A stretch of DNA of 32,000 nt from Nitratidesulfovibrio vulgaris str. Hildenborough (GCF_000195755.1 NC_002937.3:2580001-2612000); one strand, 5' to 3'; counted from the stretch's first letter, positions 29-31,246 are shown. The notes: a model not told the origin generated them from the sequence alone. Translations and numbers: made by a program.

Positions 29-2368
29 ATGGCACGGCACCTCTGCATCCACGGCCACTTCTACCAGCCCCCACGGGAAGACCCGTGGCAGGGAGACGTC
101 CTGCCCGAAGGCAGCGCAGCCCCCGCCCACGACTGGAACGAACGCATCCACCGTGAAAGCTACGCCCCGCTGGCATGGGCGCGCCGCCTCGACGCCAATG
201 GCCGTATCGCAGACATCATGAACTGCTACGAGTGGATGAGCTTCAACGTAGGCCCCACGCTGCTGCGCTGGATGGACAGACACGCCCCCGACACCCTGCG
301 CCGCATGGTCGAGGGCGACAGGCAAAGCCTCGCCCGCTGGGGCCACGGCAACGCGCTGGCGCAGGTGTACCATCATATCATCATGCCGCTGGCCACTGTG
401 CGCGACCGCGAGATGGAGGTGGCATGGGCCGTGGACGACTTCATGCACCGCTTCGGCCGCAAGCCGGAAGGCATGTGGCTGGCCGAAAGCGCCGCCGACC
501 TGCCCTCTCTGGAGACGCTGGCCGATGCGGGCATCGCCTTCACCATCCTCGCACCGCGTCAGGCGCGCGCCGTCGCCATGCTGGACGGCAGGCCCGCCGA
601 TGATGCCGCATGGATGCCCGTGGACGAGCATTCTCTCGACATCCGCGAACCCTACCTCGTGGAACTCCCCTCCGGGCGTTCCATGGCCGTCTTCTTCTAT
701 GACGGTGCCCTGTCGCGGGCCGTGGCCTTCGAAAGACTGCTGCAAGACGGCGAGGGTTTCTGGAGGCGCCTCGTGGGGGCCGCCGGCCCCGGTCTGCTTT
801 CCGTGTGTACCGACGGCGAGACCTACGGACACCATTTCACCTTCGGGGAGATGGCCTTGGCCCACGTTCTGGGACAGGGCTATTCGGGCCGCGACGACCT
901 GCGTCTGACCAACTACGCGGCGCAACTGGAACGCACCCCTCCCAGACGGCGTGTCCTCCTGCATGAACCGTCGTCATGGAGTTGCGCCCACGGCGTCGAG
1001 CGATGGCGTAGCGACTGCGGCTGCACCGACGGCGGGCATCCGGGCTGGAACCAGCGCTGGCGCAAGCCCTTGCGCGAAGGGCTGGATGCCATGAAGCGCG
1101 AGATAGACGCCCATTTCTCCCGGCGCGGCGCGTCGCTCTTCTATGACCCGTGGGCGGCACTCCGCGGGTATGGCAAGGTGCTGGCGACGCAATCAACGGC
1201 GGCAGCGACACCTTCGGCCGACAGCGCACAACCCGCGGCCCCGGGCACGGCGCTCCCTGATGCACTTGAAGACGCCCGCTCCACCTTTGCCGCAAAACAC
1301 CTGCGACCCGACCTCGCCCCCTCGGACATCGATACGGCATGGCGTCTTCTGGCCATGCAGGAAGCGGCCCTTGCCGCCTTCGCCAGTTGTGCATGGTTCT
1401 TCGACGAAATCTCGCGCATCGAACCCGTCAACGCCATGACCTACGCCCTGCGGGCCTCCGACCTCGCCGCCGCCACAGGCACGGGCGACATCCACAGGCA
1501 TCTTCTCGAACACCTGCAACGGGCCGTCTCCAACAAGCCCGAAGAAGGCACGGGGGCGGACATCTTCACCCACCACGCCCTTCCCCGCCGCGAGACGGTA
1601 CCGGGGCTGGTGCTTCAGGCCCTGTGCCTCCTCGAAGCCGCAGACGCCTTGCCCGCCGCGGGCGACACCGCCACATGGACGTGGCCTGGGGCACAGGTCG
1701 CCGTCCGTCTGGAGTCCGCCCCCGGCGACGTGCCGCTGCAAGGCATGGCCGAAGTCCGCCTTGCCCTTGAACCCGGGGGAGAGACGGTGCACTTCGCGTG
1801 GACGCCGCCACACGCCACGGGGGCAACAGGCAGCCTCGTCCGCGTGGTGCGTGCGGATGGAACGCAGGAGGCCATGCGGCTGATGGACCTTGCCCGCAAC
1901 CGGCGCGAGGCGTTGCTGGCGGCACTGACCACAGGGGCGACCCGGCGTGCCGACGAGCTTCTCGGTCCGGTGGCACGCATGATGCTGCCGCTGGTCTCAC
2001 CGTGGGAGGAGGCGCAACGCGACATGGTGCGTTCCGAAGCGTGGGCACCGCTTCTGCCCACGCTGGGGCTTGCCACCATCACAGGTTGCGGGGCATCGCC
2101 GGAGACGTTGCGCCTTGTGGAGGACTACCTTCGCGCCAACCTCGGCGCAGGCGACCGCAGACGGCTGGCAAGACTGGCCGAAGGCATGTTCACGGAACTG
2201 CTCGACGCGCCGGAACCCGACTGGGACAAGATCGAACGACGCATCGTGCGGACACGCGCCCTGCTGCCGGACATGGACTGGTGGTCCGTGCAGAACCGGA
2301 TATGGCAATGGGGGCTCGCCGGTGAAGGGCCGCGCCGCTGCGCTGTCCAACTCGGGTTCAGGGTCTAG
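29..2368 (+). CDS. Glycoside hydrolase family 57 protein (alpha-amylase / glucan-processing type) with a long C-terminal extension
   Basis: 779-aa ORF with SD AAGGAGA at 18-24, 4 nt before the ATG at 29. HGHFYQPPRE, GMWLAESA and CTDGETYGHH resemble the conserved GH57 blocks (HQP block, nucleophile Glu block, DGE..G acid/base block). The C-terminal ~350 aa has no motif I can name. Confidence 0.85.
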   Translation: MARHLCIHGHFYQPPREDPWQGDVLPEGSAAPAHDWNERIHRESYAPLAWARRLDANGRIADIMNCYEWMSFNVGPTLLRWMDRHAPDTLRRMVEGDRQSLARWGHGNALAQVYHHIIMPLATVRDREMEVAWAVDDFMHRFGRKPEGMWLAESAADLPSLETLADAGIAFTILAPRQARAVAMLDGRPADDAAWMPVDEHSLDIREPYLVELPSGRSMAVFFYDGALSRAVAFERLLQDGEGFWRRLVGAAGPGLLSVCTDGETYGHHFTFGEMALAHVLGQGYSGRDDLRLTNYAAQLERTPPRRRVLLHEPSSWSCAHGVERWRSDCGCTDGGHPGWNQRWRKPLREGLDAMKREIDAHFSRRGASLFYDPWAALRGYGKVLATQSTAAATPSADSAQPAAPGTALPDALEDARSTFAAKHLRPDLAPSDIDTAWRLLAMQEAALAAFASCAWFFDEISRIEPVNAMTYALRASDLAAATGTGDIHRHLLEHLQRAVSNKPEEGTGADIFTHHALPRRETVPGLVLQALCLLEAADALPAAGDTATWTWPGAQVAVRLESAPGDVPLQGMAEVRLALEPGGETVHFAWTPPHATGATGSLVRVVRADGTQEAMRLMDLARNRREALLAALTTGATRRADELLGPVARMMLPLVSPWEEAQRDMVRSEAWAPLLPTLGLATITGCGASPETLRLVEDYLRANLGAGDRRRLARLAEGMFTELLDAPEPDWDKIERRIVRTRALLPDMDWWSVQNRIWQWGLAGEGPRRCAVQLGFRV

Positions 2369-5673: not shown

Positions 5674-5718
5674 ACGGCGCCCTCCCCCTTCACGCGAGCC
5701 CCGCAGCATCGTATACTT

Positions 5719-5764
5719 GTCGCGCCTCACGCCACACCACTGCCAGAGTGGCGTGAGGCGCGGC
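5719..5764 (+). terminator. Strong GC-rich hairpin downstream of the nfnB-like gene (candidate terminator or insulator before pstS)
   Basis: 15 perfect bp (CGCGCCTCACGCCAC at 5721-5735 pairs with GTGGCGTGAGGCGCG at 5748-5762) plus 2 flanking pairs, with a 12-nt loop. It lies 46 nt after the stop at 5673. No U-tract follows, so the mechanism is uncertain. Confidence 0.4.
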
Positions 5765-5914
5765 GACACCAGACATGCCCCTCCACCTTCGCCGAAGCGC
5801 TTTCCACGTCACGAACATGTGCGACCGCCGCAACCGTTCCGTAACATGAGGGCCCTATTTTCCCCTCACGCGCCACGGCGCGCCCCAGTTCTGCAACATA
5901 ACCGGAGGAAGAAC

Positions 5915-6727
5915 ATGTCGATCAAGCGTTTCGCCCTCGTCGCCCTCATGACGCTTGGCCTTGCCGCCAACGCCTTCGCCGCCGACAAGATCGTGGTCAA
6001 GGGTTCGACCACCGTGCTCCCCATCATGCAGAAAGCTGCCGAAGCCTACATGAAGAAGACCCCCGGCGTGGAGATCGAAATCTCCGGTGGGGGTTCCGGC
6101 AACGGTATCAAGGCCCTCATCGACGGCACGCTGGACATCTGCATGTCCTCGCGCAAGATCAAGGACAAGGAAGTGGAAGCCGCCAAGGCCAACGGTCGCG
6201 AAGCCGTCGAGCACATCGTCGCCCTCGACGCCATCCTGCCCATCGTCAACAAGGGCAACCCCGTCGACAACCTGACCATCGACCAGCTTCGCGCCATCTA
6301 CGAAGGCAAGATCACCAACTGGAAGGAAGTGGGCGGCAAGGACGAAGCCATCGTGGTCATCTCCCGCGACACCTCCTCCGGCACCTACGAATCGTGGCAG
6401 CATTTCGTCATGAAGGACGCCAAGGTCTTCCCCGGCGCGCTGTTGCAGGCATCCTCCGGTGCCGTGCTTCAGGCCGTCTCCAAGAACTCCAAGGCCATCT
6501 CCTACGACGGCATCGGCTACGTGAACGACACCGTCAAGGCCACCAAGGTCAACGGCGTCACCGGTTCCGCCGCCACCGCCAAGGATGGTTCGTACGCCAT
6601 GGCCCGCGACCTGCAAATCTACACCCCCGGTCAGCCTCAGGGTGCGGTGAAGAACTTCATCGACTTCATGAAGTCGGCCGAAGGCCAGGCCCTCGTGCAG
6701 GAAGCCGGCTTCATCCCGACCAAGTAG
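5915..6727 (+). CDS. pstS: Phosphate ABC transporter substrate-binding protein PstS family
   Basis: The ATG at 5915 follows GGAGGA (5904-5909). Signal peptide MSIKRFALVALMTLGLAANAFA|AD. KGSTTVLP and GGGSGNG motifs of PBP-like_2 phosphate binders. The track ORF's 66-aa N-terminal extension starts at a TTG and looks non-coding. Confidence 0.85.
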   Translation: MSIKRFALVALMTLGLAANAFAADKIVVKGSTTVLPIMQKAAEAYMKKTPGVEIEISGGGSGNGIKALIDGTLDICMSSRKIKDKEVEAAKANGREAVEHIVALDAILPIVNKGNPVDNLTIDQLRAIYEGKITNWKEVGGKDEAIVVISRDTSSGTYESWQHFVMKDAKVFPGALLQASSGAVLQAVSKNSKAISYDGIGYVNDTVKATKVNGVTGSAATAKDGSYAMARDLQIYTPGQPQGAVKNFIDFMKSAEGQALVQEAGFIPTK

Positions 6728-6806
6728 CATCCCTGCCCCAGCCCATCCCTGCCCCCCGCGCCACTGGCGCGGGGGGCGCACCATCAGACAGGATACCGGT
6801 ACGCAA

Positions 6807-7700
6807 ATGGCCATGTCGCGACGCGCAAAAGACAACATGGTGCACGGCGCCTTCTGGACAGCCGCCGCCCTCTGCATCGTCACGCTGACGCTCATCATGG
6901 TCTTCCTCTTCATGGAAGGCTTTCCCATTTTCCAGCATGTGAGCCTTGCCGACTTCATCTTCGGCAAGCTGTGGTATCCCACATTCGACCCGCCGGAATT
7001 CGGCATCCTGCCCATGATAGTGGGGTCGCTGGTCGTGACCGCGCTTTCGTCGCTCATCGCCATCCCGCTTGGCATCATGACCGCCATCTACCTTGCCGAG
7101 TTGGCCGGCCCCCGGATGCGCGCCTACGTGAAGCCCCTCGTGGAGATGCTTCAGGCACTGCCTTCGGTGGTCATCGGCTTCTTCGGCATGGTCATCGTGG
7201 CCCCGTGGCTACAGGAGACCTTCGACATCGCCACAGGTCTCAACATCGCCAACGCATCCATCATGCTGGCGTTCATGGCCGTGCCCACCATCACCAGCAT
7301 CGCCGAAGACGCCATCTACAGCGTACCCAACGACATGCGCGAGGCCTCTCTCGCCCTCGGGGCCACCCACTGGCAGACCATAGGCCGCGTGGTCGTCCCT
7401 GCGGCACTGCCCGGCATCAGCACGGCGGTCATCCTCGGCATGGCGCGTTCCATCGGAGAGACCATGGTCGTTCTCATGGTGGCGGGCGGCGCAGCCATGC
7501 TGCCCGGTTCCATCTTCGACCCTTCACGGCCCATGCCCGCCTCCATCGCAGCAGAGATGGCCGAAGCCCCCTTCCGTAGCGACCATTACCACGCACTCTT
7601 CGCCACCGGCCTTGTGCTCTTCTTCTTCACTCTCGCCTTCAACGCACTGGCCGCATGGATTGCCGAAAAGAAGAAACAGGTGGGAACGGCAACGCTGTAA
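6807..7700 (+). CDS. pstC: Phosphate ABC transporter permease PstC
   Basis: 297 aa and polytopic. EAA-loop region EDAIYSVPNDMREASLALGATHWQTIGRVVVPAALPGI. Sits directly after pstS. The exact start (6807, 6813 or 6837) is uncertain because the SD is weak. Confidence 0.85.
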   Translation: MAMSRRAKDNMVHGAFWTAAALCIVTLTLIMVFLFMEGFPIFQHVSLADFIFGKLWYPTFDPPEFGILPMIVGSLVVTALSSLIAIPLGIMTAIYLAELAGPRMRAYVKPLVEMLQALPSVVIGFFGMVIVAPWLQETFDIATGLNIANASIMLAFMAVPTITSIAEDAIYSVPNDMREASLALGATHWQTIGRVVVPAALPGISTAVILGMARSIGETMVVLMVAGGAAMLPGSIFDPSRPMPASIAAEMAEAPFRSDHYHALFATGLVLFFFTLAFNALAAWIAEKKKQVGTATL

Positions 7701-7786
7701 CCGGCCGTTGCACCCTGTCGACAAGCATCACAACGCCGGAGCATCCGGCCCATGCGGCACTGCCGCACAAGCACGCAGGAGCGACA

Positions 7787-8716
7787 ATGCCCCGCACTGC
7801 CTTCGCCTCACAGCAGACGGCCACCCTCGGCAACATTGGCCACATGCCTCAGGATTCCGGCTATGTGAAACGCCGCAAGCCTCTGCAACGATTCATGTTC
7901 GGCCTGTTCCATGTCGCCGTGTTCATCAATGCGGCGGCCCTCGCCATCATCTGCGGCTTCGTCCTCTACCACGGTCTGCCCGCCATCAGTTGGGAGTTTC
8001 TCACCGCCTTTCCGCGTGACTCCATGACCAAGGGCGGCATCCTGCCGTGCATCCTCGGCACCATCGCCCTCAGCTACGGTTCAATGCTCATCGCCCTGCC
8101 ATGGGGAGTGGCCACAGCCATCTACCTGCAGGAGTACGCCCGCCCCGGCCCGCTGGTGCACGCCATACGTCTGACCATCAACAACCTGGCAGGGGTGCCT
8201 TCGGTCGTCTTCGGCCTGTTCGGACTCTCGATGTTCGTCACCGCCATGAAGATGGGAGTCAGCCTGCTGGCGGGCATGTTCACGCTGGCGGCACTGGTGC
8301 TGCCGCTCATCATCGGGGCATCCGAAGAGGCACTGCGCTCGGTCTCGCAGACCTACCGCGAAGCGTCACTGGGGCTTGGGGCCACCAAGTGGCAGACCAT
8401 CTCGCTGGTGGTGCTTCCCGCCGCGCTGCCCAGCATCCTCACCGGGGCCATCCTTGCCGTCGGTCGCGCCGCAGGTGAGACGGCAGCCATCATGTTCACG
8501 GCTGCCATGTTCTTCAGCCCCCGCCTGCCCGGTTCGCTGTTCGACAGTGTCATGGCCCTGCCCTACCACATCTATGTGCTGGCGACGGCAGGTACTGAAA
8601 TCGAACTGACGCGCCCCATGCAATTCGGCACCTCGCTGGTGCTCATCGTGCTGGTGCTGGGCATGAACCTCATGGCCATCATCATGCGGGCGCGACTCCA
8701 GCGCAGACTCCGCTGA
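7787..8716 (+). CDS. pstA: Phosphate ABC transporter permease PstA
   Basis: The ATG at 7787 follows AGGAG with a 5-nt spacer. EAA-loop EEALRSVSQTYREASLGLGATKWQTISLVVLPAALPSI. The track ORF start at 7655 overlaps the end of pstC and lacks an SD. Confidence 0.8.
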   Translation: MPRTAFASQQTATLGNIGHMPQDSGYVKRRKPLQRFMFGLFHVAVFINAAALAIICGFVLYHGLPAISWEFLTAFPRDSMTKGGILPCILGTIALSYGSMLIALPWGVATAIYLQEYARPGPLVHAIRLTINNLAGVPSVVFGLFGLSMFVTAMKMGVSLLAGMFTLAALVLPLIIGASEEALRSVSQTYREASLGLGATKWQTISLVVLPAALPSILTGAILAVGRAAGETAAIMFTAAMFFSPRLPGSLFDSVMALPYHIYVLATAGTEIELTRPMQFGTSLVLIVLVLGMNLMAIIMRARLQRRLR

Positions 8717-8831
8717 CGGGCCTCCCGAAGAGAATACCGGCCCCGGAGCACGTAGTACGTCGCACCTGAACCGCACCGGGCACCCTCTCGCCCTGCCCAC
8801 GCGCCATGGGCGGACACGCGACTCCCACGCG

Positions 8832-8879
8832 AATGACCGCAGCCTGAACCCCGTCTAGAGGGTTCAGGCTGCGGTCATT
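8832..8879 (+). terminator. Rho-independent-type terminator after pstA
   Basis: Perfect 20-bp inverted repeat: AATGACCGCAGCCTGAACCC at 8832-8851 pairs with GGGTTCAGGCTGCGGTCATT at 8860-8879. 8-nt loop, T-rich 3' edge (CATTTG). Confidence 0.6.
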
Positions 8880-9037
8880 TGCGGGCACTCCGAACCGTCG
8901 TATGGCCAGAGGGCCGACCTCCCGCCGCAAGGACGGCCCTTCGACTGTGGTGCACCATACCCTCACCAACCGCCTTTCAGACCACGGCAAAGCCGGACGG
9001 CTGAAGCCATGGGAACAGATTCCATTCCATACACGAA

Positions 9038-9075
9038 ACCCCGGAAGGTGATCGTCAGCGACAACCTTCCGGGGT
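9038..9075 (-). terminator. Hairpin downstream of the formate dehydrogenase beta gene (candidate operon terminator)
   Basis: 12-bp stem (9038-9049 pairs with 9064-9075) with a 14-nt loop, about 95 nt past the stop at 9171 on the minus strand. The trailing sequence TTCGTGT is only a weak U-tract. Confidence 0.3.
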
Positions 9076-9170
9076 GTTGCGTATCCAGTCGGCGCGGCCT
9101 GCCGGATGCTGCCCCCCATGCCATCGCCCAGTGCCGCAGCAGGCATACGGCGCGCTAGCAGGACGCGACG

Positions 9171-9884
9171 CTAGGCGAAAGGACGCAGGCGCAACAAGGC
9201 GCGACGGCTGAAGGGCCCGATGCGCGAGGTGTCGGCTTCCGCCACCATGTGCGAATGGTAGTTGGCGGGGGCGAGCTCGCACAGGTACAGGACCCGTACA
9301 AGGTCGGAGTCCGCCAGCAGGGCTGCGGGGCTCCTCTTCTTCACCTCGCCGAGGCGTTTCTGCGCCAGTTCAAGCATGTCGGCCCTGTCACCGAAGTGCA
9401 TGGTCCCCGTGGGGCAGGTCTTCACGCACGCGGGCAGCATGCCGTTCTGCACCCGGTCGATGCACATGTTGCATTTGGTGAGCAGACCCGTTGCCGGGTC
9501 TTGCCGCGGGATGTCGTAGGGGCACGCCGAGCGCACCTCCATGTAGTCCAGTCCCTTGGTCTTCTCGGTGTAGAGCACCGCCCCGGTCTCCGCATCCTGC
9601 ACGATGGCACCCGGAATGAGGGCATCCGCCACCATCTTGCACGGTGGTTCGAGACAGTGGCGGCATTGCTCCGGGAAGAACAGCCATTTCAGTTTGCCAT
9701 CCACCTCGACCTCGTTGAAGCGCACCAGCTTGAAGGTGCTCGGCCCGAGGTCGGGCGGATTCTGGTATGAGCCGGTGTTGCGCGTCTCGATGCTGCCGAA
9801 CTTCTTCCACTGCTTGCAGGCGGCCTGACAGCCCCGACAGGCCGTGCAACGCGTCTGGTCTATGAAGAACGTCTTGCCGTTCAT
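9171..9884 (-). CDS. fdhB: Formate dehydrogenase iron-sulfur (beta) subunit, 4x[4Fe-4S] ferredoxin type, no membrane anchor
   Basis: The ATG at 9884 follows GGGAGG with a 6-nt spacer, giving 237 aa. Cys clusters CTACRGCQAAC, CRHCLEPPC, CPYDIP and CNMCIDRV...CVKTCP. The track ORF's 51-aa N-terminal extension is not supported. Confidence 0.85.
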   Translation of the reverse strand: MNGKTFFIDQTRCTACRGCQAACKQWKKFGSIETRNTGSYQNPPDLGPSTFKLVRFNEVEVDGKLKWLFFPEQCRHCLEPPCKMVADALIPGAIVQDAETGAVLYTEKTKGLDYMEVRSACPYDIPRQDPATGLLTKCNMCIDRVQNGMLPACVKTCPTGTMHFGDRADMLELAQKRLGEVKKRSPAALLADSDLVRVLYLCELAPANYHSHMVAEADTSRIGPFSRRALLRLRPFA

Positions 9885-10063
9885 GTATGCCTCCCTGATG
9901 TGACGCCTCGACACTCTCCGCATTCCCTGCGGGAGGCTGCCGAGGGGGCGCACGCCGGAGACATCGTCTCCGGCGCGACCGCTCCACTTCTTGCCGCGTA
10001 CACCGCCCCCGCAAGGGGTCGGTATCGCGCCATGCATGCATCAAGTCTTCTGATGGCGCGCCA

Positions 10064-13000
10064 CTAGGCCTTGCGCAGGTTGACCATGAAGACCTTGGTC
10101 TCGGGAATGCCAGTGTTGGGGTCGCCCACCGAAGGCGAGAGCAGGTTGGCAGAGTCGCCCTTGCCCACATGCTGCCCCCAGCCGAACTGCCACGGTATGC
10201 CCACCTCGTGCATGACCTCGCCCATGACCTTGAAGGGCTTGAGACGTGGCGTGACGATGGCGACCACCTGCACCTTGCCCCGCAGCGATTCGAGCACCAC
10301 GGCGTCGCCGTTGGCGATGCCGAGTTCCTTGGCCAGTTCGCGGCTTATCTCGCAGAAGCCCTCCGGCTGCATCTCCTTGAGCCACCCGGTGTTGCGGGTC
10401 ATCGTGCCCGACTGCCACTGTTCGGTGACGCGGTAGGTAGTGCAGATGAAGGGGTAGCGCTTGTCGCGCACCGCCTTGGGTTCGTGGCTGAACGCCAGCG
10501 CAGTGGGGTTGACCCGCTGCTTCGAGAAGGGATGGCTTTCGAGAGGACTCTCGAACGGTTCGTAGTGCTCCGGGAAAGGCCCGTCGACCCTGCCGGGGCC
10601 GAACAACTGACCGCGCCCCTCGCGTATCATGATGAAGGGCAACTTCTCTCCGGGCTTCCAGCCGCCGTCAGGCACGTCGCCCACCCACTTCTCGCCGTTC
10701 CATGCGATGACGGCACGCTTGGGGTCGAAGGGCTTGCCGGTCATGTCCACCGCCGCACGGTTGTACAGGATGCGACGGTTGGCGGGCCATGCATACGACC
10801 AGTTGGGGAACAGCCCTATGGCGGCCTGTTCCGGGGTCTGCGTACGGTCTCGGCGCGCCATCATGTTACCGGCGTCGGTATAGCACCCGGTGAATATCCA
10901 ACACCCGGACGTCGTCGAACCGTCGGCCTGCAACATGGCGAAGCCGGGTACCTGCTGCCCCGCCTTGTAGGTCTTGTCGCCTATGGTCACGTCCGTGAGG
11001 AACTTGCCGTTCAGCGTCTTCGCCACCTTGTGGTGATCGTACTTGCCGTCGGTACGGTAGTCGGTGTCCAGCGCCAGCACGGGTTCGGGGAAGGCTCCCT
11101 TCTCCTCGCGGTAGAGTTTGCGTATCTCGTCATAGAGGTCGAGGACGATGTCACCGTCCGAACGGCTGTCGCCCATGGGTTTCGGCCCCGGTTCACGCCA
11201 TTGCAGCCAGCGACCGGAATTGGCGATGGAACCGCCCTTCTCGACGCTCATGCACGCAGGCAGGAAGAACACCTCGGTCTTGACCTTGGCGGGGTCTACC
11301 CCCGGCCCCTTCCAGAAGAGCGAACTTTCGTTCTCGAAGAGGTTGACCACCACCATCCAGTCCAGCGTCTCCATAGCCTTGCGGTTCTTGCCCGCGTTGG
11401 CCCCGCCCGCACAGGGGTTCTGCCCCCACACGAAGGCACCCTTGAAGCCGCCCTTGCTCATGCGCTCGAATATCTGCAACCACGAGTAGTCGGTTATCTT
11501 CCCGTCATCGACCTTGGGGTGCCAGAGGTAGCCGTCCTGATGGCTGGCCGTGGGATACACCGACTTCATGTACGAGGCGAGATACTTGCCGCGGTTCGAC
11601 CACCAGTTGGCGCTCTTCGGGTCCTTGTCCACCGGCGTCGTGCCCTTCACATAGTCGTCGAAGGTGGCCCACGAGGCCTTGGGGGTGGGCAGGTAGCCGG
11701 AGAGGTTGTCGCACAGCAGCGAGATGTCGGTGGTGCCCTGCACGTTGGATTCGCCGCGCAGCGCGTTGACCCCGCCCCCTGCGATGCCGATGTTGCCCAG
11801 CAGCAGCTGTATCATCGAAAGCGCACGGATGTTCTGTACGCCCACGGTGTGCTGGCACTGCCCCATGGCATAGAGGATGGTTCCCGCCCTGTCGGGCTTG
11901 CCCGTCGAGGCGAAGGTACTCCACAGCGTCGCCAGCTGCTCTTCGGAGATGCCCGTCACGTCGGAGACGGTCTTCCTGTCATAGCGGGCGTAGTGGGCCT
12001 TCATGAGTTGAAAGACGCAGCGCGGGTCGTTCAGCGTGGGGTCTTTCAGGGTCATGCCGTTCTCGTCGGCGGCGAAGGCCCATTTCTTGGTGTTGTAGGT
12101 TCCCTTCTCGGCGTCGAAGCCGGTGAAAAGACCATCGGCGAAACCGTAGTCCGCACCGACGATATACGAGGCGTTGGTGTAGTCGACCACGTACTGCCTG
12201 AAGAACAGGTCGTTCTCCATGATGTACCGGATGAGACCGCCGAAGAAGGCGATGTCCGTGCCCGACCTGATGTGGGCGTGGATGTCGGCCTTGGCGGATG
12301 TGCGCGTGAAGCGCGGGTCCACATGGATGAGCGTTGCACCGCGTTCCTGCGCGCGCGTCACCCACTTGAAGGATATGGGATGGTTCTCGGCGGCGTTACT
12401 CCCCATGATGAGAATGACGTCGCTGTTCTTGAGGTCGATCCAGTGATTCGTCATCGCACCGCGTCCGTAGGACTCTGCCAGAGCCCCCACAGTCGAGCTG
12501 TGTCAGATACGTGCGTGACTCTCGATGTACACGAGGCCGAGCGCGCGCATCATGGCTTGCATGAGCCAGCCCTCCTCGTTGTCGACGGCGGCCGAGCCCA
12601 CCGAGGCTATGCCCCGGGTGCGGTTGACGGTCTGCCCCTTGTCATTGGTGAGTTCGAAGGTGGCGTCGCGCGTCTCCTTGATCTTGCGGGCGATGCGCGG
12701 CAGGGCCCAGTCCCACGACTTCTCCTCCCACGCCGCGGCACCGGGTGCACGGTACAGCACCTTGGTGACACGCTTGCTGCGTTCGGTGGTCTGCCAGATG
12801 GACGCACCCTTGGGGCACAGCGTCCCTTCGTTGGTGGGATGGTCGGGGTCGCCCTCGATGTTGATGGAGCGTCCGGTCTGGGTGTCGGTGTAGACCAGCA
12901 ACCCGCATCCCACCGCACAGAAGCAGCAGACAGAGGGTGTGACCTTCGCCTTGGCGATCTTGAGTTCCGCAGCCCGCGCCACCGTGGGCGCGAGGCTCTG

Positions 13001-13075
13001 CCCCAGCCCGGCGAAGGCGAGAGCGCCTGCGGAAGCCGAAGCGAGCTTGATGAACGTTCTGCGAGGCATTCGCAT
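10064..13075 (-). CDS. fdhA: Periplasmic formate dehydrogenase catalytic (alpha) subunit, selenocysteine-containing, Tat-exported
   Basis: Two track ORFs (12503-13168 and 10064-12490) are in the same frame and are joined by the TGA at 12503-12505, read as ..IESHARI-U-HSSTVGALAE.. (the Sec-His active-site context of Mo/W formate dehydrogenases). Twin-arginine signal MRMPRRTFIKLASASAGALAFAG. CCFCAVGCGL...CPKG Fe-S motif. SD GAGGGGAG lies before the ATG at 13075. 1003 codons in total. Confidence 0.9.
12469..12505 (-). other. In-frame UGA (Sec) codon with candidate SECIS structure
   Basis: mRNA reads UGA CACAG-CUCGA-CUGUG (5-bp hairpin at 12488-12502) followed by GGGCUCU-GGC-AGAGUCC (7-bp stem with one G.U pair, 12469-12485). 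The G-containing apical loop sits about 25 nt after the UGA, inside the distance range usual for bacterial SECIS elements. Confidence 0.55.
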
Positions 13076-13091: not shown

Positions 13092-14837
13092 CTACTGATT
13101 GTTGCCCGGAGTGTGACAGTCGCGACAGCCGACGGGACCGGCGGCCTTGCCCTTTTCACGCAGCGCAAGGTGGCATGTCATGCACCCGCGTTCCTTGCCA
13201 TGGAAGGCGTTGCGGAAGTAGCCCACTTCGCCCAGACCCTCGATGGTGTCGGGACGGGGCCTGTCATGGCAGCCCTTGGTGGCGCAGGTCTGCTTGCCCT
13301 CCTGATAGCCCTTGTGGTGACAGGTTCCGCAATCCATCGAACCGTGGGTGTCATGAGGGAAGAGCACGGCGGGCTTGGTGAGTACCGTACCTGCGGGCAG
13401 GGTGATGGGAATGGTCTTGCGGATGACCACGGGATGGTGCGCCGAAGCCTCCATGGGCAATGGCTCACGGTGGCAGACGCTGCAGTTGTTGCCGCCGCCC
13501 ATGACCTTGGCGTGCTGCTGGTACTGGATGGGCGGCATGTTATCGAGGTCGCGGCCGAAGGGATTCTCGGCGGGATATTCGGCGTGTGCCGCACCGTGGC
13601 ATGTCGGACAACGCAGGTTGCCCATGTCGTCGGCGCGGGCCGAGAAGCGGTCCTTCTCCGAAGCCGTCCACTTGTTGAATGCCGATGCCGTGGCCGTGGC
13701 AGGCTTCTGGGCGAAATCATGGCAGCCGGTGCAGTCGGGTTCCATGGCCCACGGCGCACGCGGGTTGATGTCATCGACCGCGGACACGGCGCGGGGCTTG
13801 AGTTCCCTTGCGAGACGTGCCGCACTCTTGCGTCCAGCCTTCTCCTCCCAGCGCAGCAGGGAGAGGGCGTGGTCTTCCATGGCACCATGGCAACGCGTGC
13901 AGTCCAGTGCCTTGGCCTTGTGCAGCCCGCGCATGAAGCGCGTGGCGCCTTGCGGCGAAGAAGGATGGCAGCTTGCACATGTCTCGGCGCCGCCGTCGGT
14001 CATGTAGTTGGCATGCCAGCCGTGCAGGGCCGCCGAAAGGCTGGGGGCCGGGGCCTCGGGTGCCCCGCTGTGGCACGAACGGCACTCCACAGGGGCCTTG
14101 GCAGCCTGCGCGACGAGGTCGGTACCGTTGATGCGGTCATGGACGGTGAGCACGTCATCGGCCGTCGCCGGGGAGATTCCGGCCAGCCCGTCGCGCTTCC
14201 AGGCGCCGCCATGACAGTTGCGACACCCCACCTCCGTGGAGACGGGCAACACGGCGGCGGTACGGGCAAGAAGCCTGCCTTCGTCGTCGTGGGCCTCAAC
14301 GGTGACCGTCGGGTAGGCATTGAACCCGCCGGAAGCGCGATAGGGCATGATGCCGATGCCGTCGGCGGCGAACGTGCTGCCCCCCTGCTCCAGTTTCATC
14401 TCGCCTGCTGCACCGGAGACGGGTGCACCTTCAAGGGTGGCGTGTTCGCGTTCGACACGCCACGTGATGCGTACGCCCTCTGTCACCGGCGCGGGGCCGG
14501 GCCCGCGGCGCACGAGTTGCGCCCGCAATGCCGCCTCGGGGGGCAGCATCGTCCACCGGGGTTCGGCGTCCGTCACCATCTGCATACCCTGCGTACTCCA
14601 CGCCAGCAGTATGTAGTCGGCCCTGTCCGCATCGAAGGGCGGTATCGACGTGACGGGCATATACGGAGACGGGGCCGCTGCCGATGCCGCTGGGGCCTTG
14701 GCCGCAGGCGTCTCGCCCGTCGTCCGTGCCGGGCGCTCCAGCCCGCCCGCGGCGAAGATGCCGAGCAGGGCGACGACGGCGACAAGCCATGCGAAATAGT
14801 AGAAGGCGGTGAGTCTTGGCGACTGCTTGGATGGCAT
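13092..14837 (-). CDS. Membrane-anchored multiheme cytochrome c (11 heme sites) with a C-terminal cytochrome c3-like tetraheme domain
   Basis: 581 aa with SD GAGGAG 7 nt before the ATG. N-terminal hydrophobic helix LTAFYYFAWLVAVVALLGIFAAGG. Ten CxxCH motifs (CRNCH, CRSCH, CASCH, CTRCH, CTGCH, CPTCH, CSVCH, CGTCH, CMTCH, CRDCH) plus one CxxxxCH (CATKGCH). The last four sites sit within about 90 aa, as in class III cytochrome c3. The stop is 16 nt before the fdhA start. Confidence 0.85.
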   Translation of the reverse strand: MPSKQSPRLTAFYYFAWLVAVVALLGIFAAGGLERPARTTGETPAAKAPAASAAAPSPYMPVTSIPPFDADRADYILLAWSTQGMQMVTDAEPRWTMLPPEAALRAQLVRRGPGPAPVTEGVRITWRVEREHATLEGAPVSGAAGEMKLEQGGSTFAADGIGIMPYRASGGFNAYPTVTVEAHDDEGRLLARTAAVLPVSTEVGCRNCHGGAWKRDGLAGISPATADDVLTVHDRINGTDLVAQAAKAPVECRSCHSGAPEAPAPSLSAALHGWHANYMTDGGAETCASCHPSSPQGATRFMRGLHKAKALDCTRCHGAMEDHALSLLRWEEKAGRKSAARLARELKPRAVSAVDDINPRAPWAMEPDCTGCHDFAQKPATATASAFNKWTASEKDRFSARADDMGNLRCPTCHGAAHAEYPAENPFGRDLDNMPPIQYQQHAKVMGGGNNCSVCHREPLPMEASAHHPVVIRKTIPITLPAGTVLTKPAVLFPHDTHGSMDCGTCHHKGYQEGKQTCATKGCHDRPRPDTIEGLGEVGYFRNAFHGKERGCMTCHLALREKGKAAGPVGCRDCHTPGNNQ

Positions 14838-14863: not shown

Positions 14864-16156
14864 CTAATGACGCCGTGCGTCGCGCTCGTTGACGAGGTAG
14901 GTGGCGAGGGCCCTCCGTTCTGCGGGGGTTCCCACGAACGGCGGCATGTAGCCCTGTAACGCTCCCTGCCCGGTGATCAACGCCTCGACCCCGGTGAGTG
15001 GCCTGTTCGCGATGCGGGGCAGGATGTCGATCATGGGGGCTCCGAGGCCGTGGCAGTTGGCGCACTGCACCTGCCACAGTTCGCGTCCTGCCTCATGCAT
15101 GTTCGCTTCGGCAACCTGCTTGACGCCAGACCACCGCGCGACCTTCAGCATCCCTTCGAGGTCGGACTTGGCACCGGCTTCGGGCGTGATGCCGTTGGAC
15201 CAGATGACACCGTGGACAATCCACGGGCGTCTGCCCGTCTCGCGCACCCACTCGAAGGTTCCGACCTGACACAGGCCGAGCACCAGCAGCAGCGCAGCCA
15301 CAGGCACGCGCGCCCCGGAGGGAAGCCGCGTGAAGAAGGCCAGCCCGCCCACCATGAGGGCAGCCAGTACCCACGGGAAGGCTTCGAGGAAGGGCCGGAT
15401 GTCGGCGGTTCGCCGCAGCACCATCTCGAGTTGCGGTGCAGGCAGCGCCCCGAGGTACCACCATGCGCCAACGGCCATGAAGGGAATGGGGACGAGTGCC
15501 CACAGCCGCGTCACGCCCGTCATGAGTTCCCGTGCGCGCTCGTCGTCGATGAGCGAGGCCCACACAAGGCCGAACAGCCCCGAGAGCATGGCGCACAGGG
15601 CACTGCGGAAGAGCAGCGAGGGCCAGAAGGTGGGATTGAAGAAGCCGTCCCAGAAGCCCTGCGTCTGCATCCACGCACCGGGTGTGAGCATGAAGGTGAT
15701 GATGCCGTTGATCATGAACAGCGAGAGATACGCGAACAGGCCGTACAAGAGCCCCACATTGCGGTGGTCTTCGAAGCGCATCTTCCCGAAACCGTAGTAG
15801 TAGACGAGTAACGCCACTATCTCGCCGAGGAAGAACACCCATTCGGTGGCCCAGGCATAGACGAAACGATGCACCAGCAGGCTCGTGGCTGCCGGACTGA
15901 TGAGCGAGATGATGACCCAGATGCCCACGCCGGATACACCGCCGAACACCATGCTGAGCAGCAGGAAGAAACGGGTGAACCGTTTCACCCAGAACGTGGC
16001 TTCCGCCGACCCCGCGCGTTCTGCGCGCGTGGCGGCATGGACGAGCAGGAAACCGCCCCCCACTGCGAACTGGGCGACGAACACATGCAGAACGGAGATG
16101 ATGGCCACAAGCAGGCCACCGTTGATCCCCCAGAGTTGCCATACGGGATAGTCCAT
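14864..16156 (-). CDS. Polytopic membrane protein with cytochrome bd subunit I (CydA)-like motifs fused to a C-terminal monoheme cytochrome c domain
   Basis: 430 aa with about 8-9 hydrophobic helices. SVLHVFVAQFAVGGG in helix 1, FWVKRF, ATEWVFFLGE and PGAWMQTQ resemble the CydA blocks MYHFLFVP, KFWGKLF, AIEGLMAFFLE and NGWMQNP (recalled from memory). The C-terminal ~90 aa carry CANCHG and YMPPF (heme c plus candidate Met ligand). The start is 3 nt after the upstream stop. Confidence 0.8.
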   Translation of the reverse strand: MDYPVWQLWGINGGLLVAIISVLHVFVAQFAVGGGFLLVHAATRAERAGSAEATFWVKRFTRFFLLLSMVFGGVSGVGIWVIISLISPAATSLLVHRFVYAWATEWVFFLGEIVALLVYYYGFGKMRFEDHRNVGLLYGLFAYLSLFMINGIITFMLTPGAWMQTQGFWDGFFNPTFWPSLLFRSALCAMLSGLFGLVWASLIDDERARELMTGVTRLWALVPIPFMAVGAWWYLGALPAPQLEMVLRRTADIRPFLEAFPWVLAALMVGGLAFFTRLPSGARVPVAALLLVLGLCQVGTFEWVRETGRRPWIVHGVIWSNGITPEAGAKSDLEGMLKVARWSGVKQVAEANMHEAGRELWQVQCANCHGLGAPMIDILPRIANRPLTGVEALITGQGALQGYMPPFVGTPAERRALATYLVNERDARRH

Positions 16157-16159
16157 GTG

Positions 16160-17224
16160 CTAGGCCCCCTTTCGACTGCTGCGCATGAGGCGGAGCATCC
16201 AGATGATGGCGGCGACACCGCAGACCGCAGACGCGAGAAAAAGCACCAGCGGTGAGGTTTCGACGAAGTTCACGGGTTGGGGTTGCGCCCATGGGGCAAG
16301 ATACCCCTCACGCAATGAGGCGCGCATCACCGCCATGACGGTGACCGTGCCGACGGCTGCCCCCACGGCGAGGGCCACGCTACGCGCGCGGGCCGCCAGC
16401 AGGGCAAGGGCCGTTCCGATCAGACCGAGGATGAAGGCCGCAGTCGCGAGAGTGTCCCCCCCCATGAAGCGCAGCATCAGGTCGCGGGGCAATGCCATGA
16501 GGAACCAGATGCCCAGGGCTATCTGCGCATACGTGGCATGGCTGAACCAGCGCAGCCCCGTCTCGATGCCCTCCGCCGCGTCAGGTGCCCCCCACGAGGC
16601 GCGTCGCACATGGAAGAGCGAAAGCGCCAGACCGCCGATGGCGATGGATCCCACGAGCATGTGCAGCCAGCGCGGTATCAGTGTCGGGTCGCCGAGGTTC
16701 AAAAGCGCGCCGTCACGCCGCTCGAACCATGCCAGCCAGCGTTCCGGCTGGAGCATGAGCGTCATGTTGTTGCTGAAGACGAACGACGTGGCCACCAGAA
16801 GCAGGAGCGCCAGAACGATGACGGCGATGCGCCGCGTGCCCAGTTCGTCGTGATTGATGGCGAAGATGTACAGGCCGTAGTAGGCGAGCATCACCAGACC
16901 GACGATGCCGAGCCACCAGAGCGCCATGATGACGGAACTCGTGTAGAAGAAGTTGCCATAGAGCACCTGCACGAAGAGCAGTGGCGGCACGCCGAGGTTG
17001 ATGGCAAGCGCCAGTGCAGTGGGCAGGCGGGTGGCGAAGTCGCGCACCGGCCCCTGTTCGGACGCAGGTTTGCGCAACGCGTGCACCGCCACGATGACCG
17101 TGCCGCCAAGAACCGTGTTCATGAGCAGCAGATGCAGGACGAAGGTCAGCAGAAGCAGGATTTCGAACCACCACGCCGGGCCGGGCATGGCGTCAGCCAA
17201 CGGGATGAGAGAGGCGGGTTCCAT
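16160..17224 (-). CDS. Polytopic membrane protein, paralog of the N-terminal part of the downstream CydA-like protein
   Basis: 354 aa with about 9 helices. SD GAGGA 6 nt before the ATG at 17224. Helix 1 FVLHLLLMNTVLGGTVIVAVHA aligns with SVLHVFVAQFAVGGGFLLVHA of the next gene. Further shared blocks: N..T.ML.P..W and PT..P. Confidence 0.75.
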   Translation of the reverse strand: MEPASLIPLADAMPGPAWWFEILLLLTFVLHLLLMNTVLGGTVIVAVHALRKPASEQGPVRDFATRLPTALALAINLGVPPLLFVQVLYGNFFYTSSVIMALWWLGIVGLVMLAYYGLYIFAINHDELGTRRIAVIVLALLLLVATSFVFSNNMTLMLQPERWLAWFERRDGALLNLGDPTLIPRWLHMLVGSIAIGGLALSLFHVRRASWGAPDAAEGIETGLRWFSHATYAQIALGIWFLMALPRDLMLRFMGGDTLATAAFILGLIGTALALLAARARSVALAVGAAVGTVTVMAVMRASLREGYLAPWAQPQPVNFVETSPLVLFLASAVCGVAAIIWMLRLMRSSRKGA

Positions 17225-17277
17225 GGTGCGTCCTCGCAGGAAATACGGAAGGGGAAGGCATTAACCGATACTTGTTA

Positions 17278-17306
17278 TTTCTAGCCTAGAATAATCCCCG
17301 TGGCAA
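17278..17306 (-). promoter_or_regulatory. Candidate sigma70-type promoter of the formate dehydrogenase operon
   Basis: On the minus strand: TTGCCA (17306-17301), 17-nt spacer, TAGAAA (17283-17278). This would give a ~45-50 nt leader before the ATG at 17224. It overlaps an AT-rich near-palindrome. Prediction from sequence only. Confidence 0.3.
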
Positions 17307-17618
17307 CGCGAGGTGCGAAAAGAATCAACGGCACACCGCGTGTCCCAGTGGTGGCTTGCAATGCGCGCTCACGTGCAGGCTTCGCGGTGTCTACCGGCGA
17401 GCCTATCACGGCACGGTGCCATCGCCGCCACAGGGGGTACGAGGGAGAATGAAGGAGGAAGGGACGCAGACGGACAGAGTGCCCCCGCACAAGGGAACAC
17501 GGGAAAAACGTCGGGCGAGGGAGGGGCAGACAGCCGACATGTGCGCAGCGGTGCCGTACCCGGGCGACGCAACCCACTGCCGCAGGGGAAGGGGGCAGCC
17601 GCAGACAGGTCGTCGAGG

Positions 17619-19400: not shown

Positions 19401-19737
19401 CGGTGAATCCCGGGCGAAAAGCCCATGAAAAAAAGAAAGCGCGACGTTTCAATGTTGGCAAGATGCGACAGAAGGAACCGCTACGTGTCCACCGGCTGTG
19501 AACGGACTCTCGCACTGCTCTTGCGCCACGGCATGATACCGTCATGGCGAGCGCCTCCCGACGGAGGGGTAAAAGCAAGACGATGCGCGGCTTCTGACGA
19601 CATCCTGTGCAGCTTCGCGCCCGCCCCGATGCGGTCGCGCCAGCGATGCACACAGGGCACTGGACCCGTTTCGTCGCGTGCATCACCTGTCACAGAACGC
19701 AGCCATGGTCAAGCCGATGCCACGGCCCGCGTCGGCT

Positions 19738-19797
19738 GCGAACCTGCCGGTTGCGAACCTGCCGGTTGCGAATCTGCCGGTTGCGAATCTGCCTGCA
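19738..19797. repeat. Tandem direct repeat, 4 x 15 bp (GCGAAYCTGCCGGTT)
   Basis: Units at 19738-19752 and 19753-19767 (identical), 19768-19782 (one C>T change) and 19783-19797 (3' end diverges: GCGAATCTGCCTGCA). It lies in the 745-bp gap between divergent genes. Confidence 0.9.
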
Positions 19798-29896: not shown

Positions 29897-31246
29897 CTAG
29901 TCGGCCTGCTTGCGAATGAACGTGGGCAGTTCGAACTCGTCCTCGTCGAAAATGAAATCATCCTCCCCCGGCACGTGCCCTCCATTGGAACGGCTGATGC
30001 CGGAAGGATTGCGGGTCTGTTTGCGCAGGTATGCGGGGATGTTCCTGTCTTCATCAGAGAAGTTGGACAACCCGCGCCCCGGCGCGACCTGCTGTGCCTG
30101 CTGGGGAGCCTGCTGCGGCTGCTGCGGGGCCTGCTGCGGCTGCTGACGCCCGAATTCGGCTACGGGGCCGGACTCGACACGGGCCTGCGGTGCAGGGCGC
30201 TGTGCGGCGGGTGCCGCCTGCTGCTGCGAAGGACGACGGAACTGGGCGATGTTGCCGTTCTGTGCGTTGGGTGTGACGGTGGCCGAACCACAGGCTTCGA
30301 TGCCGGTGGCGATGACGGTGATGCGCATCTCATCGCCAGCCGACTCGTCGAAGACCGTACCGAAGAAGATGCGCGCCTCATCGTGTGCGGCTTCCTGAAT
30401 GATGCCTGCGGCTTCGCTGACTTCGTCGATGGTGAGGTCGGGACCGCAGGTGATGTTCATGAGCACACCACGTGCACCGTCGATGGAGACGTCTTCAAGC
30501 AGCGGGCTGGTGATGGCCTTCATGGCGGCCTCGCGGGCACGCGACTCGCCACGGGCGATGCCTGCGCCCATCATGGCAAGACCCGACTCGCCCATGACGG
30601 CCTTCACGTCGGCGAAGTCGAGGTTGATGAGGCCGGGCACCATGATGAGGTCGGAGATGCCCTTGACGGCGAAGTAGAGCACTTCGTCAGCCTTCTTGAG
30701 CATTTCCACGAAGGTGGCCTTCTTGGGGGCCAGCGAAAGCAGCCTGTCGTTGGGGATGGTGATGAGGCTGTCCACATGCTCGCGGAAGTCGGCAATGCCC
30801 TGTTCCGCGGCTTCAAGGCGCTTGCGGCCTTCGAAGAAGAAGGGCTTGGTCACCACACCCACGGTGAGCGCGCCCATCTCGCGGGCGGCCTGCGCGATGA
30901 CAGGGGCTGCACCGGTACCGGTGCCGCCACCCATGCCTGCGGTGACGAACACCATGTCGGCTTCACCGATGCAATCCTTGATCGCGTTCATGCTCTCGAC
31001 GGCAGCGTCACGACCTATTTGCGGATTGGCACCGGCGCCGAGGCCCTTGGTGAGTTTTTCGCCAAGCTGTATCTTGAGTTCCGCCGAAGAACGGCCAAGG
31101 GCCTGCACGTCGGTGTTCGCGCAGATGAAGGTCACGCCCTTGAGCGTGGAGGTGATCATGTTCTGCACGGCGTTGCCGCCGCCGCCACCTACGCCTATGA
31201 CCTTGATCTTGGCGGAGTTCTCGATGTCGATATCCATGAATTCCAT
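29897..31246 (-). CDS. ftsZ: Cell division GTPase FtsZ
   Basis: 449 aa. [10 protein letters not shown] and [11 protein letters not shown] tubulin signature. Gln/Pro-rich linker and conserved C-terminal peptide [23 protein letters not shown] upstream of the ATG. Confidence 0.97.
30109..30150. repeat. 2 x 21-nt tandem repeat inside the ftsZ linker (encodes PQQPQQA twice)
   Basis: CCTGCTGCGGCTGCTGCGGGG (30109-30129) versus CCTGCTGCGGCTGCTGACGCC (30130-30150). The first 16 nt are identical (17 of 21 positions overall). Flanked by further CTGCTG-type sequence from about 30088. Confidence 0.7.

Follow-up and report, generated by a model that had tools for sequence, protein, structure and literature searches.

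An OR-C gene pair of the cytochrome bd superfamily in the fdh2 operon of Nitratidesulfovibrio vulgaris Hildenborough: a candidate link between formate and oxygen

Introduction

Why should a sulfate reducer encode, directly ahead of a formate dehydrogenase, two membrane proteins that resemble subunit I of cytochrome bd, one of them fused to a c-type haem domain? The question is raised by a stretch of 32,000 nucleotides (nt) from the genome of Nitratidesulfovibrio vulgaris str. Hildenborough (hereafter D. vulgaris; GCF_000195755.1, NC_002937.3:2580001-2612000), referred to below as the window, with positions counted from its first letter. Two adjacent open reading frames (ORFs) on its minus strand, 17224..16160 and 16156..14864, encode proteins of 354 and 430 residues, exactly where an earlier note, made from the sequence alone, had located them. 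That note had regarded the proteins as a CydA/CydA'-like pair fed by c-type haems and not by quinol, and as an atypical use of the bd scaffold. The present analysis supports such a view of the pair, on the basis of bd membership, the missing quinol site and the fused haem c domain. The use of the scaffold is indeed atypical, but it corresponds to a published family and so is not new, and oxygen would be its presumed substrate by analogy of conserved residues.

The family in question is OR-C; in the scheme of Murali, Gennis and Hemp (bioRxiv 10.1101/2021.01.16.426971; ISME J 2021), it stands beside qOR and OR-N as one of the three groups of the bd superfamily. OR-C enzymes are described there as devoid of a quinol site, with a CydA subunit that typically has eight helices and, beyond them, a periplasmic C-terminal stretch carrying haem c, and with an adjoining paralogue, OR-C1b; cytochrome c was proposed as the electron donor. 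The OR-C1a sheet of Table S7 contains the 430-residue protein itself, entered as 'DVU2484 cytochrome c family protein [D. vulgaris Hildenborough]', with one haem c, and a hypothetical membrane protein beside the orthologue of strain DP4 is given as OR-C1b. Moreover, the residues of the OR-C1a row of Table S6 (F183, H24, E105, E112, S145, H131, Y119, Y121, V77 and W80) follow the numbering of DVU2484. A bd family fed by cytochrome c, with DVU2484 listed in it, is therefore already known, and the classification was still cited in 2026. The same survey found 532 OR-C sequences among 24,706 GTDB genomes, and the species set scanned here contains at least 559 matches. Many aerobes and microaerophiles have OR-C, among them Chitinophaga, Myroides, Lysinibacillus, Hydrogenobacter and Thiomonas. 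In the literature searched, no purification, assay or other biochemical data were found for any OR-C enzyme.

The literature describes the row DVU2485-2481 as a five-gene fdh2 operon, and its gene content and order are reproduced in the window. The enzyme encoded at its end, FDH2 (DVU2482-81), is an O2-insensitive tungsten/selenocysteine formate dehydrogenase with formate oxidase activity, through which it generates reactive oxygen species, and it prefers high-potential over low-potential acceptors. Its authors predicted that it functions in aerobic respiration and that its natural partner is a multihaem cytochrome c; in their words its biological function 'remains to be elucidated', and they describe its aerobic redox partners as likewise unknown. 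The FDH2 paper makes no mention of cytochrome bd, the bd-superfamily paper makes none of formate, and a connection between FDH2 and the bd-like genes of the same operon is drawn in neither. The operon link between an OR-C pair and an O2-insensitive formate dehydrogenase, a statement of which was not found in the papers available, is the residual interest of the locus.

Results

Identity of the pair

An exact-sequence look-up matched DVU2483-2486 of N. vulgaris Hildenborough, the GNAT protein upstream of the pair being Q728W6. Since DVU2483, DVU2484 and DVU2485 are exact matches, the pair corresponds to DVU2485 (17224..16160; AAS96957.1), a polytopic protein with no haem c, and DVU2484 (16156..14864; Q728W8). 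A published proteomics table assigns Q728W8 to DVU_2484 (CfdD, 47.7 kDa) and Q728W9 to DVU_2483 (CfdE, 61.9 kDa), both within the 'FdhM' complex, and the masses computed here for the two proteins are identical to the tabulated ones. DVU2484 was seen in that table by mass spectrometry with 7 peptide-spectrum matches.

DVU2484, a bd-type subunit I

Relatives were gathered at E <= 1e-3 (3867 for the 430-residue protein and 564 for the 354-residue one), and diverse subsets were aligned as families A1 and A2, respectively. As a single sequence, DVU2484 matches the Pfam family of cytochrome bd subunit I, PF01654, with an E value of 2.3e-5 and 23.6 bits, below the gathering cut-off of 26.2, and a single-sequence phmmer search against the PDB returned cytochrome c domains only. 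Among its relatives, 26 of 29 match PF01654 at E <= 0.01 (best E 3e-13), and the family profile finds the CydA of Geobacillus (5doq_A) with an E value of 9.8e-7 and 93.7 % in hhalign, so that the similarity to bd subunit I anticipated by the earlier note is significant at the level of profiles. The AlphaFold2 model of the protein (predicted local distance difference test, pLDDT, 85.9; predicted template modelling score, pTM, 0.84) leads to the same group: the ten best Foldseek matches are CydA chains and the next ten CydB chains, all with probability 1.00, the best being 9r2g_A (E 1.3e-8), with 5doq_A and 6rko_A also among them, and unrelated folds follow only at E > 0.1. Taken together, profiles and predicted fold make it close to certain that DVU2484 is a member of the superfamily of cytochrome bd subunit I, with a bd core of eight helices at residues 1-310 (nt 15227..16156, minus strand).

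The conservation of individual positions was followed in the OR-C1a orthologues of 80 species-representative genomes which, together with the window protein, make 81 sequences. H24, E105, E112, S145 and R184 are invariant in this set, as are E302, R305, E306, R309 and P311. By alignment, H24 corresponds to H21 of the Geobacillus enzyme (H19 in E. coli), the pair E105/E112 to E101/E108 (E99/E107 in E. coli), and H131 and S145 to H128 and S142. The two glutamates lie in the block E105...E112 of ATEWVFFLGE (15821..15844, minus strand) and are separated by six residues, as in the qOR2-4 subfamilies. The motifs read by eye in the earlier note are all present (FWVKRF at residues 55-60, ATEWVFFLGE at 103-112, AWMQ at 161-164, LLFRS at 181-185 and CANCH at 365-369); ATEWVFFLGE does represent the Glu99...Glu107 block of the proton channel, but VHA, FWVKRF and AWMQ are not conserved hallmarks of CydA.

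The determinants of quinol oxidation are missing from this core. Where CydA has the b558 ligand H186, F183 or R184 is found, within LLFRS as had been suspected, and a histidine occurs at 183 or 184 in none of the 81 sequences; a counterpart of M393 is also absent. With both H186 and M393 missing, DVU2484 would hold no haem b558. The loop between helices 6 and 7 comprises about 20 residues in the AlphaFold2 model and by hydropathy, which bears out the absence of a long Q-loop, and the whole segment before the haem c domain is only about 310 residues long.

The end of helix 8 carries the motif E302-W-V-R-E306-T-G-R-R-P311 (15224..15253, minus strand; E306 codon at 15239-15241), the counterpart of '(W)xxAEVGRQPW' in CydA. 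In the alignment, E306 of RETGRRPW pairs with the glutamate of AEVGRQPW, which is E445 in E. coli, a stretch that is non-significant by itself. A motif RExxR[RK]P[WYF] is invariant after helix 8 of OR-C1a, which implies an E445-like glutamate, contrary to Table S6 of Murali et al., in which E445 is given as missing from OR-C1a. Of the haem ligands listed in the earlier note, H19 and E99 are thus found as H24 and E105, along with E107 as E112, all in 81/81 sequences, and H186 is replaced; in the case of E445, E306 is equally invariant, but its assignment depends on that stretch of alignment and is at odds with the published scoring.

Residues ~345-430 of DVU2484, its C-terminal part (nt 14867..15124, minus strand), make up a cytochrome c domain of class I, covered by PF13442 at residues 355-421 with an E value of 5e-9. 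The haem c attachment motif CANCH (C365, C368 and H369) maps to 15050..15064, and the likely distal ligand is M404, in a YMPPF sequence; these four residues are invariant in the 81 sequences. As to the side of the membrane on which this domain lies, the N-terminus of CydA is periplasmic, and the AlphaFold2 model together with hydropathy analysis gives eight long helices, so that the C-terminus should also be periplasmic. The Lys+Arg counts of the first five loops (0, 4, 0, 3 and 0) obey the positive-inside rule. An independent argument for the same placement is provided by the heptahaem domain described below, which must be exported when it stands alone and is contiguous with the C-terminus of OR-C1a when fused to it. 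Maturation of c-type cytochromes is likewise periplasmic. A periplasmic and not a cytoplasmic location of the CxxCH domain is thus predicted, as the earlier note would have it.

DVU2485, a distant paralogue with its own histidines

The relationship between the two proteins lies beyond pairwise comparison. BLASTP of DVU2485 against DVU2484 is non-significant (best E 0.26), and paralogy is therefore established through profiles and fold. The blocks of helix 1 that had been aligned by eye are present, VLHLLLMNTVLGG..VHA (DVU2485, residues 29-49) and VLHVFVAQFAVGG..VHA (DVU2484, residues 22-41), but this alignment does not rise above chance (BLASTP E 1.5). The comparison of both families with hhalign (probability 89.6 %, E 1.9e-6) does include the helix-1 histidine, in a match of 220 collinear columns that also takes in the ML.P..W and PT..P blocks. 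The first of these later blocks, proposed as N..T.ML.P..W, can be matched between NNMTLMLQPERW and NGIITFMLTPGAW with a gap of one residue, the pattern being inexact in the 430-residue protein; the second is found in both proteins, as DPTLIP and NPTFWP.

DVU2485 escapes the usual sequence searches: the PDB gave nothing, either in a phmmer search with the single protein or in a search with its family profile, and the Pfam bd families matched none of 28 relatives. The AlphaFold model (pLDDT 86.1, pTM 0.87) retrieves bd subunits in all of the 17 top Foldseek matches, with probability 1.00 and template modelling scores (TM-scores) of 0.53-0.66 when normalised by the query, and the scores drop sharply thereafter to unrelated folds with E > 0.1. 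According to these profiles and models, DVU2485 and DVU2484 are distant paralogues that share the bd fold. Nine transmembrane helices are predicted in DVU2485 by model and hydropathy, against the eight reported for OR-C1b.

Six residues of DVU2485 (H31, H188, M297, R301, R185 and W163) are conserved in 73/73 sequences, among them two histidines whose codons lie at 17134..17132 (H31) and 16663..16661 (H188), on the minus strand. A collinear alignment of the family to a single fragment of Geobacillus CydA, weak in itself (hhalign probability 4.6 %) and informative for residue register only, puts H31 on H21 and H188 on the b558 histidine H186, and the spacing from a conserved (N/D)P to the histidine is +8 in both DVU2485 and Geobacillus CydA. 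There is, in addition, a conserved loop, predicted as periplasmic, with the sequence NNMTLMLxPExW...DPTLxPRYLH. Invariant H31, H188 and M297 would be unexpected in a haem-free partner of the CydB type, and OR-C1b is not simply a CydB substitute. By residue conservation, it may bind one or more haems of its own through H31 and H188, perhaps with M297, in which case the haems of the membrane module would number four or five. The fdh2 operon context, the alignment of E306 to E445 and the invariance of H188 in OR-C1b are all absent from the accessible parts of the paper of Murali et al. and its supplement.

The multihaem cytochrome and formate dehydrogenase 2

The gene that follows the pair, DVU2483 (14837..13092, minus strand; exact match to Q728W9), encodes a membrane-anchored multihaem cytochrome c of 581 residues, with ten CxxCH motifs and one CxxxxCH by motif count. 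A lone hydrophobic segment at residues 8-37, near the N-terminus, serves as export anchor. The rest comprises a conserved heptahaem core and, C-terminal to it, a tetrahaem cytochrome c3 domain at residues 486-577 (nt 13107..13382, minus strand), which matches PF02085 and, with an E value of 3e-11, solved cytochromes c3.

The large subunit FdhA (13075..10064, minus strand) starts with a twin-arginine translocation signal, MRMPRRTFIKL..., and is interrupted by an in-frame TGA selenocysteine codon (12505..12503; read-through SHARI*HSSTVGA) that links ORFs of 221 and 808 residues into a selenocysteine protein of ~1003 residues, on the two halves of which the Pfam domains Molybdop_Fe4S4, Molybdopterin and Molydop_binding are recognised. 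Its predicted mass of 110.3 kDa, with a start two codons short, compares with 110.8 kDa in the proteomics table, and this mass together with the position beside the exactly matched DVU2483-2485 identifies it as DVU2482. The hairpin after the TGA, a candidate selenocysteine insertion sequence, could not be distinguished from shuffled controls (z -0.24) and has no Rfam match. The iron-sulfur subunit FdhB, DVU2481, lies in the ORF 9171..10037 of the minus strand, with its true start inside the ORF, and matches PF13247 (Fer4_11) with an E value of 1e-39. Peptides of DVU2481-2484 have been detected in anaerobic lactate/sulfate cultures.

Conservation of the gene order

A survey of synteny at 80 related loci from species-representative genomes showed that the order OR-C1b, OR-C1a and multihaem domain is kept in 73 of them. 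Within these 73, one species per locus, the heptahaem domain is fused to OR-C1a in 66, giving proteins of ~880 residues with eight CxxCH motifs (for example, L003 2787-5444), and the split form, a monohaem OR-C1a with a separate multihaem gene, is found in the remaining seven, which include the clade of the window. In the Geobacter and Trichlorobacter loci L068, L069, L072 and L077, OR-C1a precedes OR-C1b, no multihaem gene follows, and OR-C1a is a protein of ~585 residues with three cytochrome c domains (trihaem). In the case of L035 and L059, the available sequence stops just after OR-C1a.

The FdhAB genes follow the triplet in only four loci (L001, L009, L028 and L053), all of them from Desulfovibrionaceae, and the FdhB copies of L001 and L028 are 76-78 % identical to that of the window and occupy the same position. 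The additional C-terminal tetrahaem c3 domain occurs precisely in these four loci and in no others of the survey, a co-occurrence which suggests that this domain is an adaptor taking electrons from FdhAB, as does the c3 subunit in FdhABC3. Beyond the triplet and the four instances of FdhAB, every recurrent family of neighbouring genes is limited to nine of the 80 loci at most.

Operon signals and surroundings

The genes DVU2485, DVU2484, DVU2483 and DVU2482 are separated by gaps of 3, 26 and 16 nt and preceded by ribosome-binding sites; that of DVU2484, whose ATG lies 3 nt after the stop codon of DVU2485, is placed inside the 3' end of the latter gene. A GAGGA ribosome-binding site is found 7 nt 5' of the ATG of DVU2485, at the edge of an intergenic region of 394 nt (17225..17618, minus strand) which also contains a terminator-like hairpin (17313..17296) 3' of the GNAT gene. 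The operon promoter presumably lies within this region, in which neither a sigma-70 promoter consensus was found nor, for the operon, a convincing terminator. An Rfam scan of the entire window matched no family.

Directly 3' of FdhB, an ORF of 154 residues (8682..9146, minus strand) has no Pfam match and no counterpart in the relatives linked to formate dehydrogenase; it may not be a real gene and was not counted in the system. Divergent from the end of the operon, the plus strand encodes at 5717-8716 an ABC uptake system, composed of a PBP_like_2 binding protein and two BPD_transp_1 permeases, which looks like a Pst-type phosphate transporter; a tungstate or molybdate oxyanion transporter serving formate dehydrogenase would be the alternative. 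Farther away, FtsZ (29897-31246, minus strand) and a GH57/DUF3536 glycoside hydrolase-like protein (29-2368, plus strand) are housekeeping neighbours consistent with a chromosomal, non-mobile context. A tandem repeat of 15 nt (19733-19793; 4.1 copies, consensus CGGTTGCGAACCTGC, 95 % matches) sits between a GAF-domain gene and a ComFB-domain ORF.

Discussion

A possible route from formate to oxygen

The reading that is somewhat favoured here is that DVU2485 and DVU2484 are the OR-C1b and OR-C1a subunits of a quinol-independent bd-type oxidase placed at the end of a chain from formate to oxygen. OR-C1b and OR-C1a would most likely form a heterodimer in the membrane, by analogy with CydA/CydB and CydA/CydA'. 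Within it, four helices of OR-C1a would provide the core for oxygen reduction, with His24 and Glu306 as haem ligands and Glu105 and Glu112 in a proton channel open to the cytoplasm, and the monohaem cytochrome c domain after helix 8 would be the point of electron entry, standing in for haem b558 and the Q-loop. Electrons from formate would enter at the tungsten-pterin and iron-sulfur centres of FdhAB, pass from the clusters to the cytochrome c3 domain of DVU2483 and to its heptahaem core, and from there, through the haem c of DVU2484, reach a di-haem active site where oxygen would be reduced to water. The cytoplasm would supply the protons for this reaction, and the pathway would thereby remove oxygen and contribute to the proton-motive force with no participation of the quinone pool; since the oxidation of formate releases protons outside, electron transfer along it would be electrogenic, with menaquinone bypassed. 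Oxygen is more likely than not the acceptor of OR-C1a. The proposal is favoured because OR-C is common in aerobes and microaerophiles and because FDH2 prefers acceptors of high potential. A stronger version, in which DVU2485-2481 would equip a 'strict anaerobe' with a self-contained formate:oxygen oxidoreductase that does without quinone, with FDH2 hard-wired through the 11-haem cytochrome to OR-C in an energy-conserving redox loop and possibly with haems of its own in OR-C1b, is more tentative and would at present be wagered against.

Several observations weigh against the route from formate to oxygen. DVU2482-84 are abundant in strictly anaerobic lactate/sulfate cultures, which indicates that they are expressed independently of oxygen. 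The link to FdhAB is confined to a few Desulfovibrionaceae, and formate is thus not a general donor for OR-C. The reduction of oxygen is extrapolated from the conservation of residues. The equivalent of E445 is scored as absent from OR-C1a in Table S6 of Murali et al., the alignment of E306 being non-significant alone. The positive-inside rule is only mildly informative for DVU2484, since a clear signal is confined to the first five loops and the later ones are ambiguous. Finally, OR-C1b has invariant histidines at the positions of both H19 and H186, a pair that could be the sign of a further or distinct redox role, for instance that of a quinone site. The b558-type histidine, lost from OR-C1a, is kept in OR-C1b, so that an extra haem or a function linked to quinones is conceivable, and this keeps the rival explanations alive.

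Other explanations of the pair

The traditional name of the complex, membrane-associated formate dehydrogenase (FdhM), and its anaerobic expression would fit a formate:menaquinone oxidoreductase, in which DVU2485/2484 would not be a terminal oxidase but a quinone-reducing anchor of FdhM, bringing electrons of the multihaem cytochrome to the menaquinone pool in the manner of Qrc or FdnI. Several complexes of sulfate reducers are built in this way, with a quinone reductase supplied by a multihaem cytochrome c, and the invariant H19- and H186-like histidines of OR-C1b, together with M297, could hold b haems beside a quinone pocket. Such an anchor is nevertheless unlikely: OR-C1a lacks the Q-loop and both b558 ligands, the glutamates of its proton channel and the His and Glu of its oxygen site are 100 % conserved, for which a quinone reductase facing the periplasm would have no need, and neither the frequency of OR-C in aerobes nor the preference of FDH2 for high-potential acceptors is what it would predict. 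The same OR-C1b histidine equivalent to H186, which lies beside the highly conserved periplasmic loop, also allows electrons to be imagined in the reverse direction, from quinol or another membrane donor oxidised at OR-C1b outwards through haem c and the multihaem cytochrome to the c3 pool, to FDH2 acting as a CO2 reductase or, in the variants of Geobacter type, to extracellular acceptors. Metal-dependent formate dehydrogenases are reversible and the trihaem variant of Geobacter and Trichlorobacter would suit this flow; however, there is no Q-loop, FDH2 is biased towards high-potential acceptors, and the cytoplasmic proton channel and high-spin haem ligands of OR-C1a would be left with no role, all of which makes the outward flow very unlikely.

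A third possibility retains the di-haem site and changes its substrate, so that the complex would be a reductase fed from the periplasm for H2O2, NO, peroxynitrite or nitrite, devoted to detoxification and not to oxygen respiration. Defence against oxidative stress is plausible in an anaerobic host whose FDH2 makes reactive oxygen species through its formate oxidase activity, and side activities of the catalase or peroxidase type have been credited to canonical bd enzymes, these being untested for CydAA' according to Murali et al. On the other hand, the sequences showed no pattern of residues that would mark a different substrate, what is conserved is what serves oxygen reduction in qOR enzymes, and OR-C is broadly distributed in aerobes, which leaves detoxification distinctly unlikely. 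As for the idea that the resemblance to bd is fortuitous, with generic hydrophobic helices next to an unrelated membrane-anchored cytochrome c, it could appeal to the non-significant BLASTP of the pair, to the score of DVU2484 below the Pfam gathering threshold and to the lack of any Pfam or PDB sequence match for OR-C1b. It was rejected because the profile and fold evidence is specific: every top PDB fold match of both models is a bd subunit with probability 1.00, and the catalytic residues align and are invariant. The likelihood of such a coincidence is next to nil, and the idea is effectively refuted.

Comparison with other systems

Within the OR-C family, the pair has all the expected traits: a CydA-like subunit of eight helices with no quinol site and with a C-terminal CxxCH, an adjacent CydA paralogue and even the same residue numbering. 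No difference at the family level was seen, and the D. vulgaris form only belongs to the minority split type (7 of 73 loci, versus 66 with fused eight-haem proteins). The canonical CydAB enzymes, such as E. coli bd-I (6rko) and that of G. thermodenitrificans (5doq), share with the pair the fold (TM-score 0.55-0.61; Foldseek E 1e-6 to 1e-8), the helix-1 histidine, the two glutamates of the proton channel, a putatively equivalent ExGRxPW motif where helix 8 ends and a two-subunit, pseudo-symmetric architecture. In contrast, OR-C1a has no Q-loop and no H186 or M393, eight helices instead of nine and an added cytochrome c domain; its partner is a CydA paralogue bearing histidines, whereas CydB is haem-free; the proposed donor is a cytochrome c instead of quinol; and no small ORF of the CydX or CydS type was found upstream of DVU2485. 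CydAA' of Caldivirga maquilingensis (qOR4a/qOR4b) is similar in that its second subunit is a duplicate of CydA retaining the equivalent of His19; however, qOR4a has the quinol site, the b558 ligands and a demonstrated quinol:O2 activity, whereas OR-C has no quinol site and its activity is deduced from sequence. The OR-N enzymes of Nitrospira, Nitrospinota and Ca. Manganitrophus also combine a bd core with no quinol site, a presumed supply of electrons by c-type cytochromes and, often, pairs of a/b paralogues, but they have 10-14 helices, no fused haem c domain, a histidine at the H186 position and other operon contexts.

The donor side finds a parallel in FdhABC3 of D. vulgaris (DVU2809-2812), where a periplasmic selenocysteine FdhAB also delivers electrons to a dedicated tetrahaem cytochrome c3 module. 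In that enzyme, c3 is a small soluble subunit that feeds the periplasmic c3 pool, whereas in DVU2483 it forms the C-terminus of an 11-haem membrane-anchored cytochrome encoded beside a bd-type membrane module. A tethered class-I cytochrome c of the CcoP type (PF13442) as electron entry is also known from haem-copper oxidases (CcoP of cbb3, subunit II of caa3), which belong to an unrelated catalytic superfamily with a haem-copper site, so that the likeness is an analogy only.

Biological meaning

OR-C is one of the three families of the bd superfamily and is present in hundreds of genomes. The operon link merges two questions, the function of OR-C and the role of the O2-insensitive FDH2, into one that can be directly tested, given that D. 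vulgaris Hildenborough is genetically tractable and that both a strain with the fdh2 operon deleted and a platform for the purification of FDH2 exist. If the route from formate to oxygen is true, the complex would offer a sulfate reducer a way to burn formate with trace oxygen, bypassing menaquinone.

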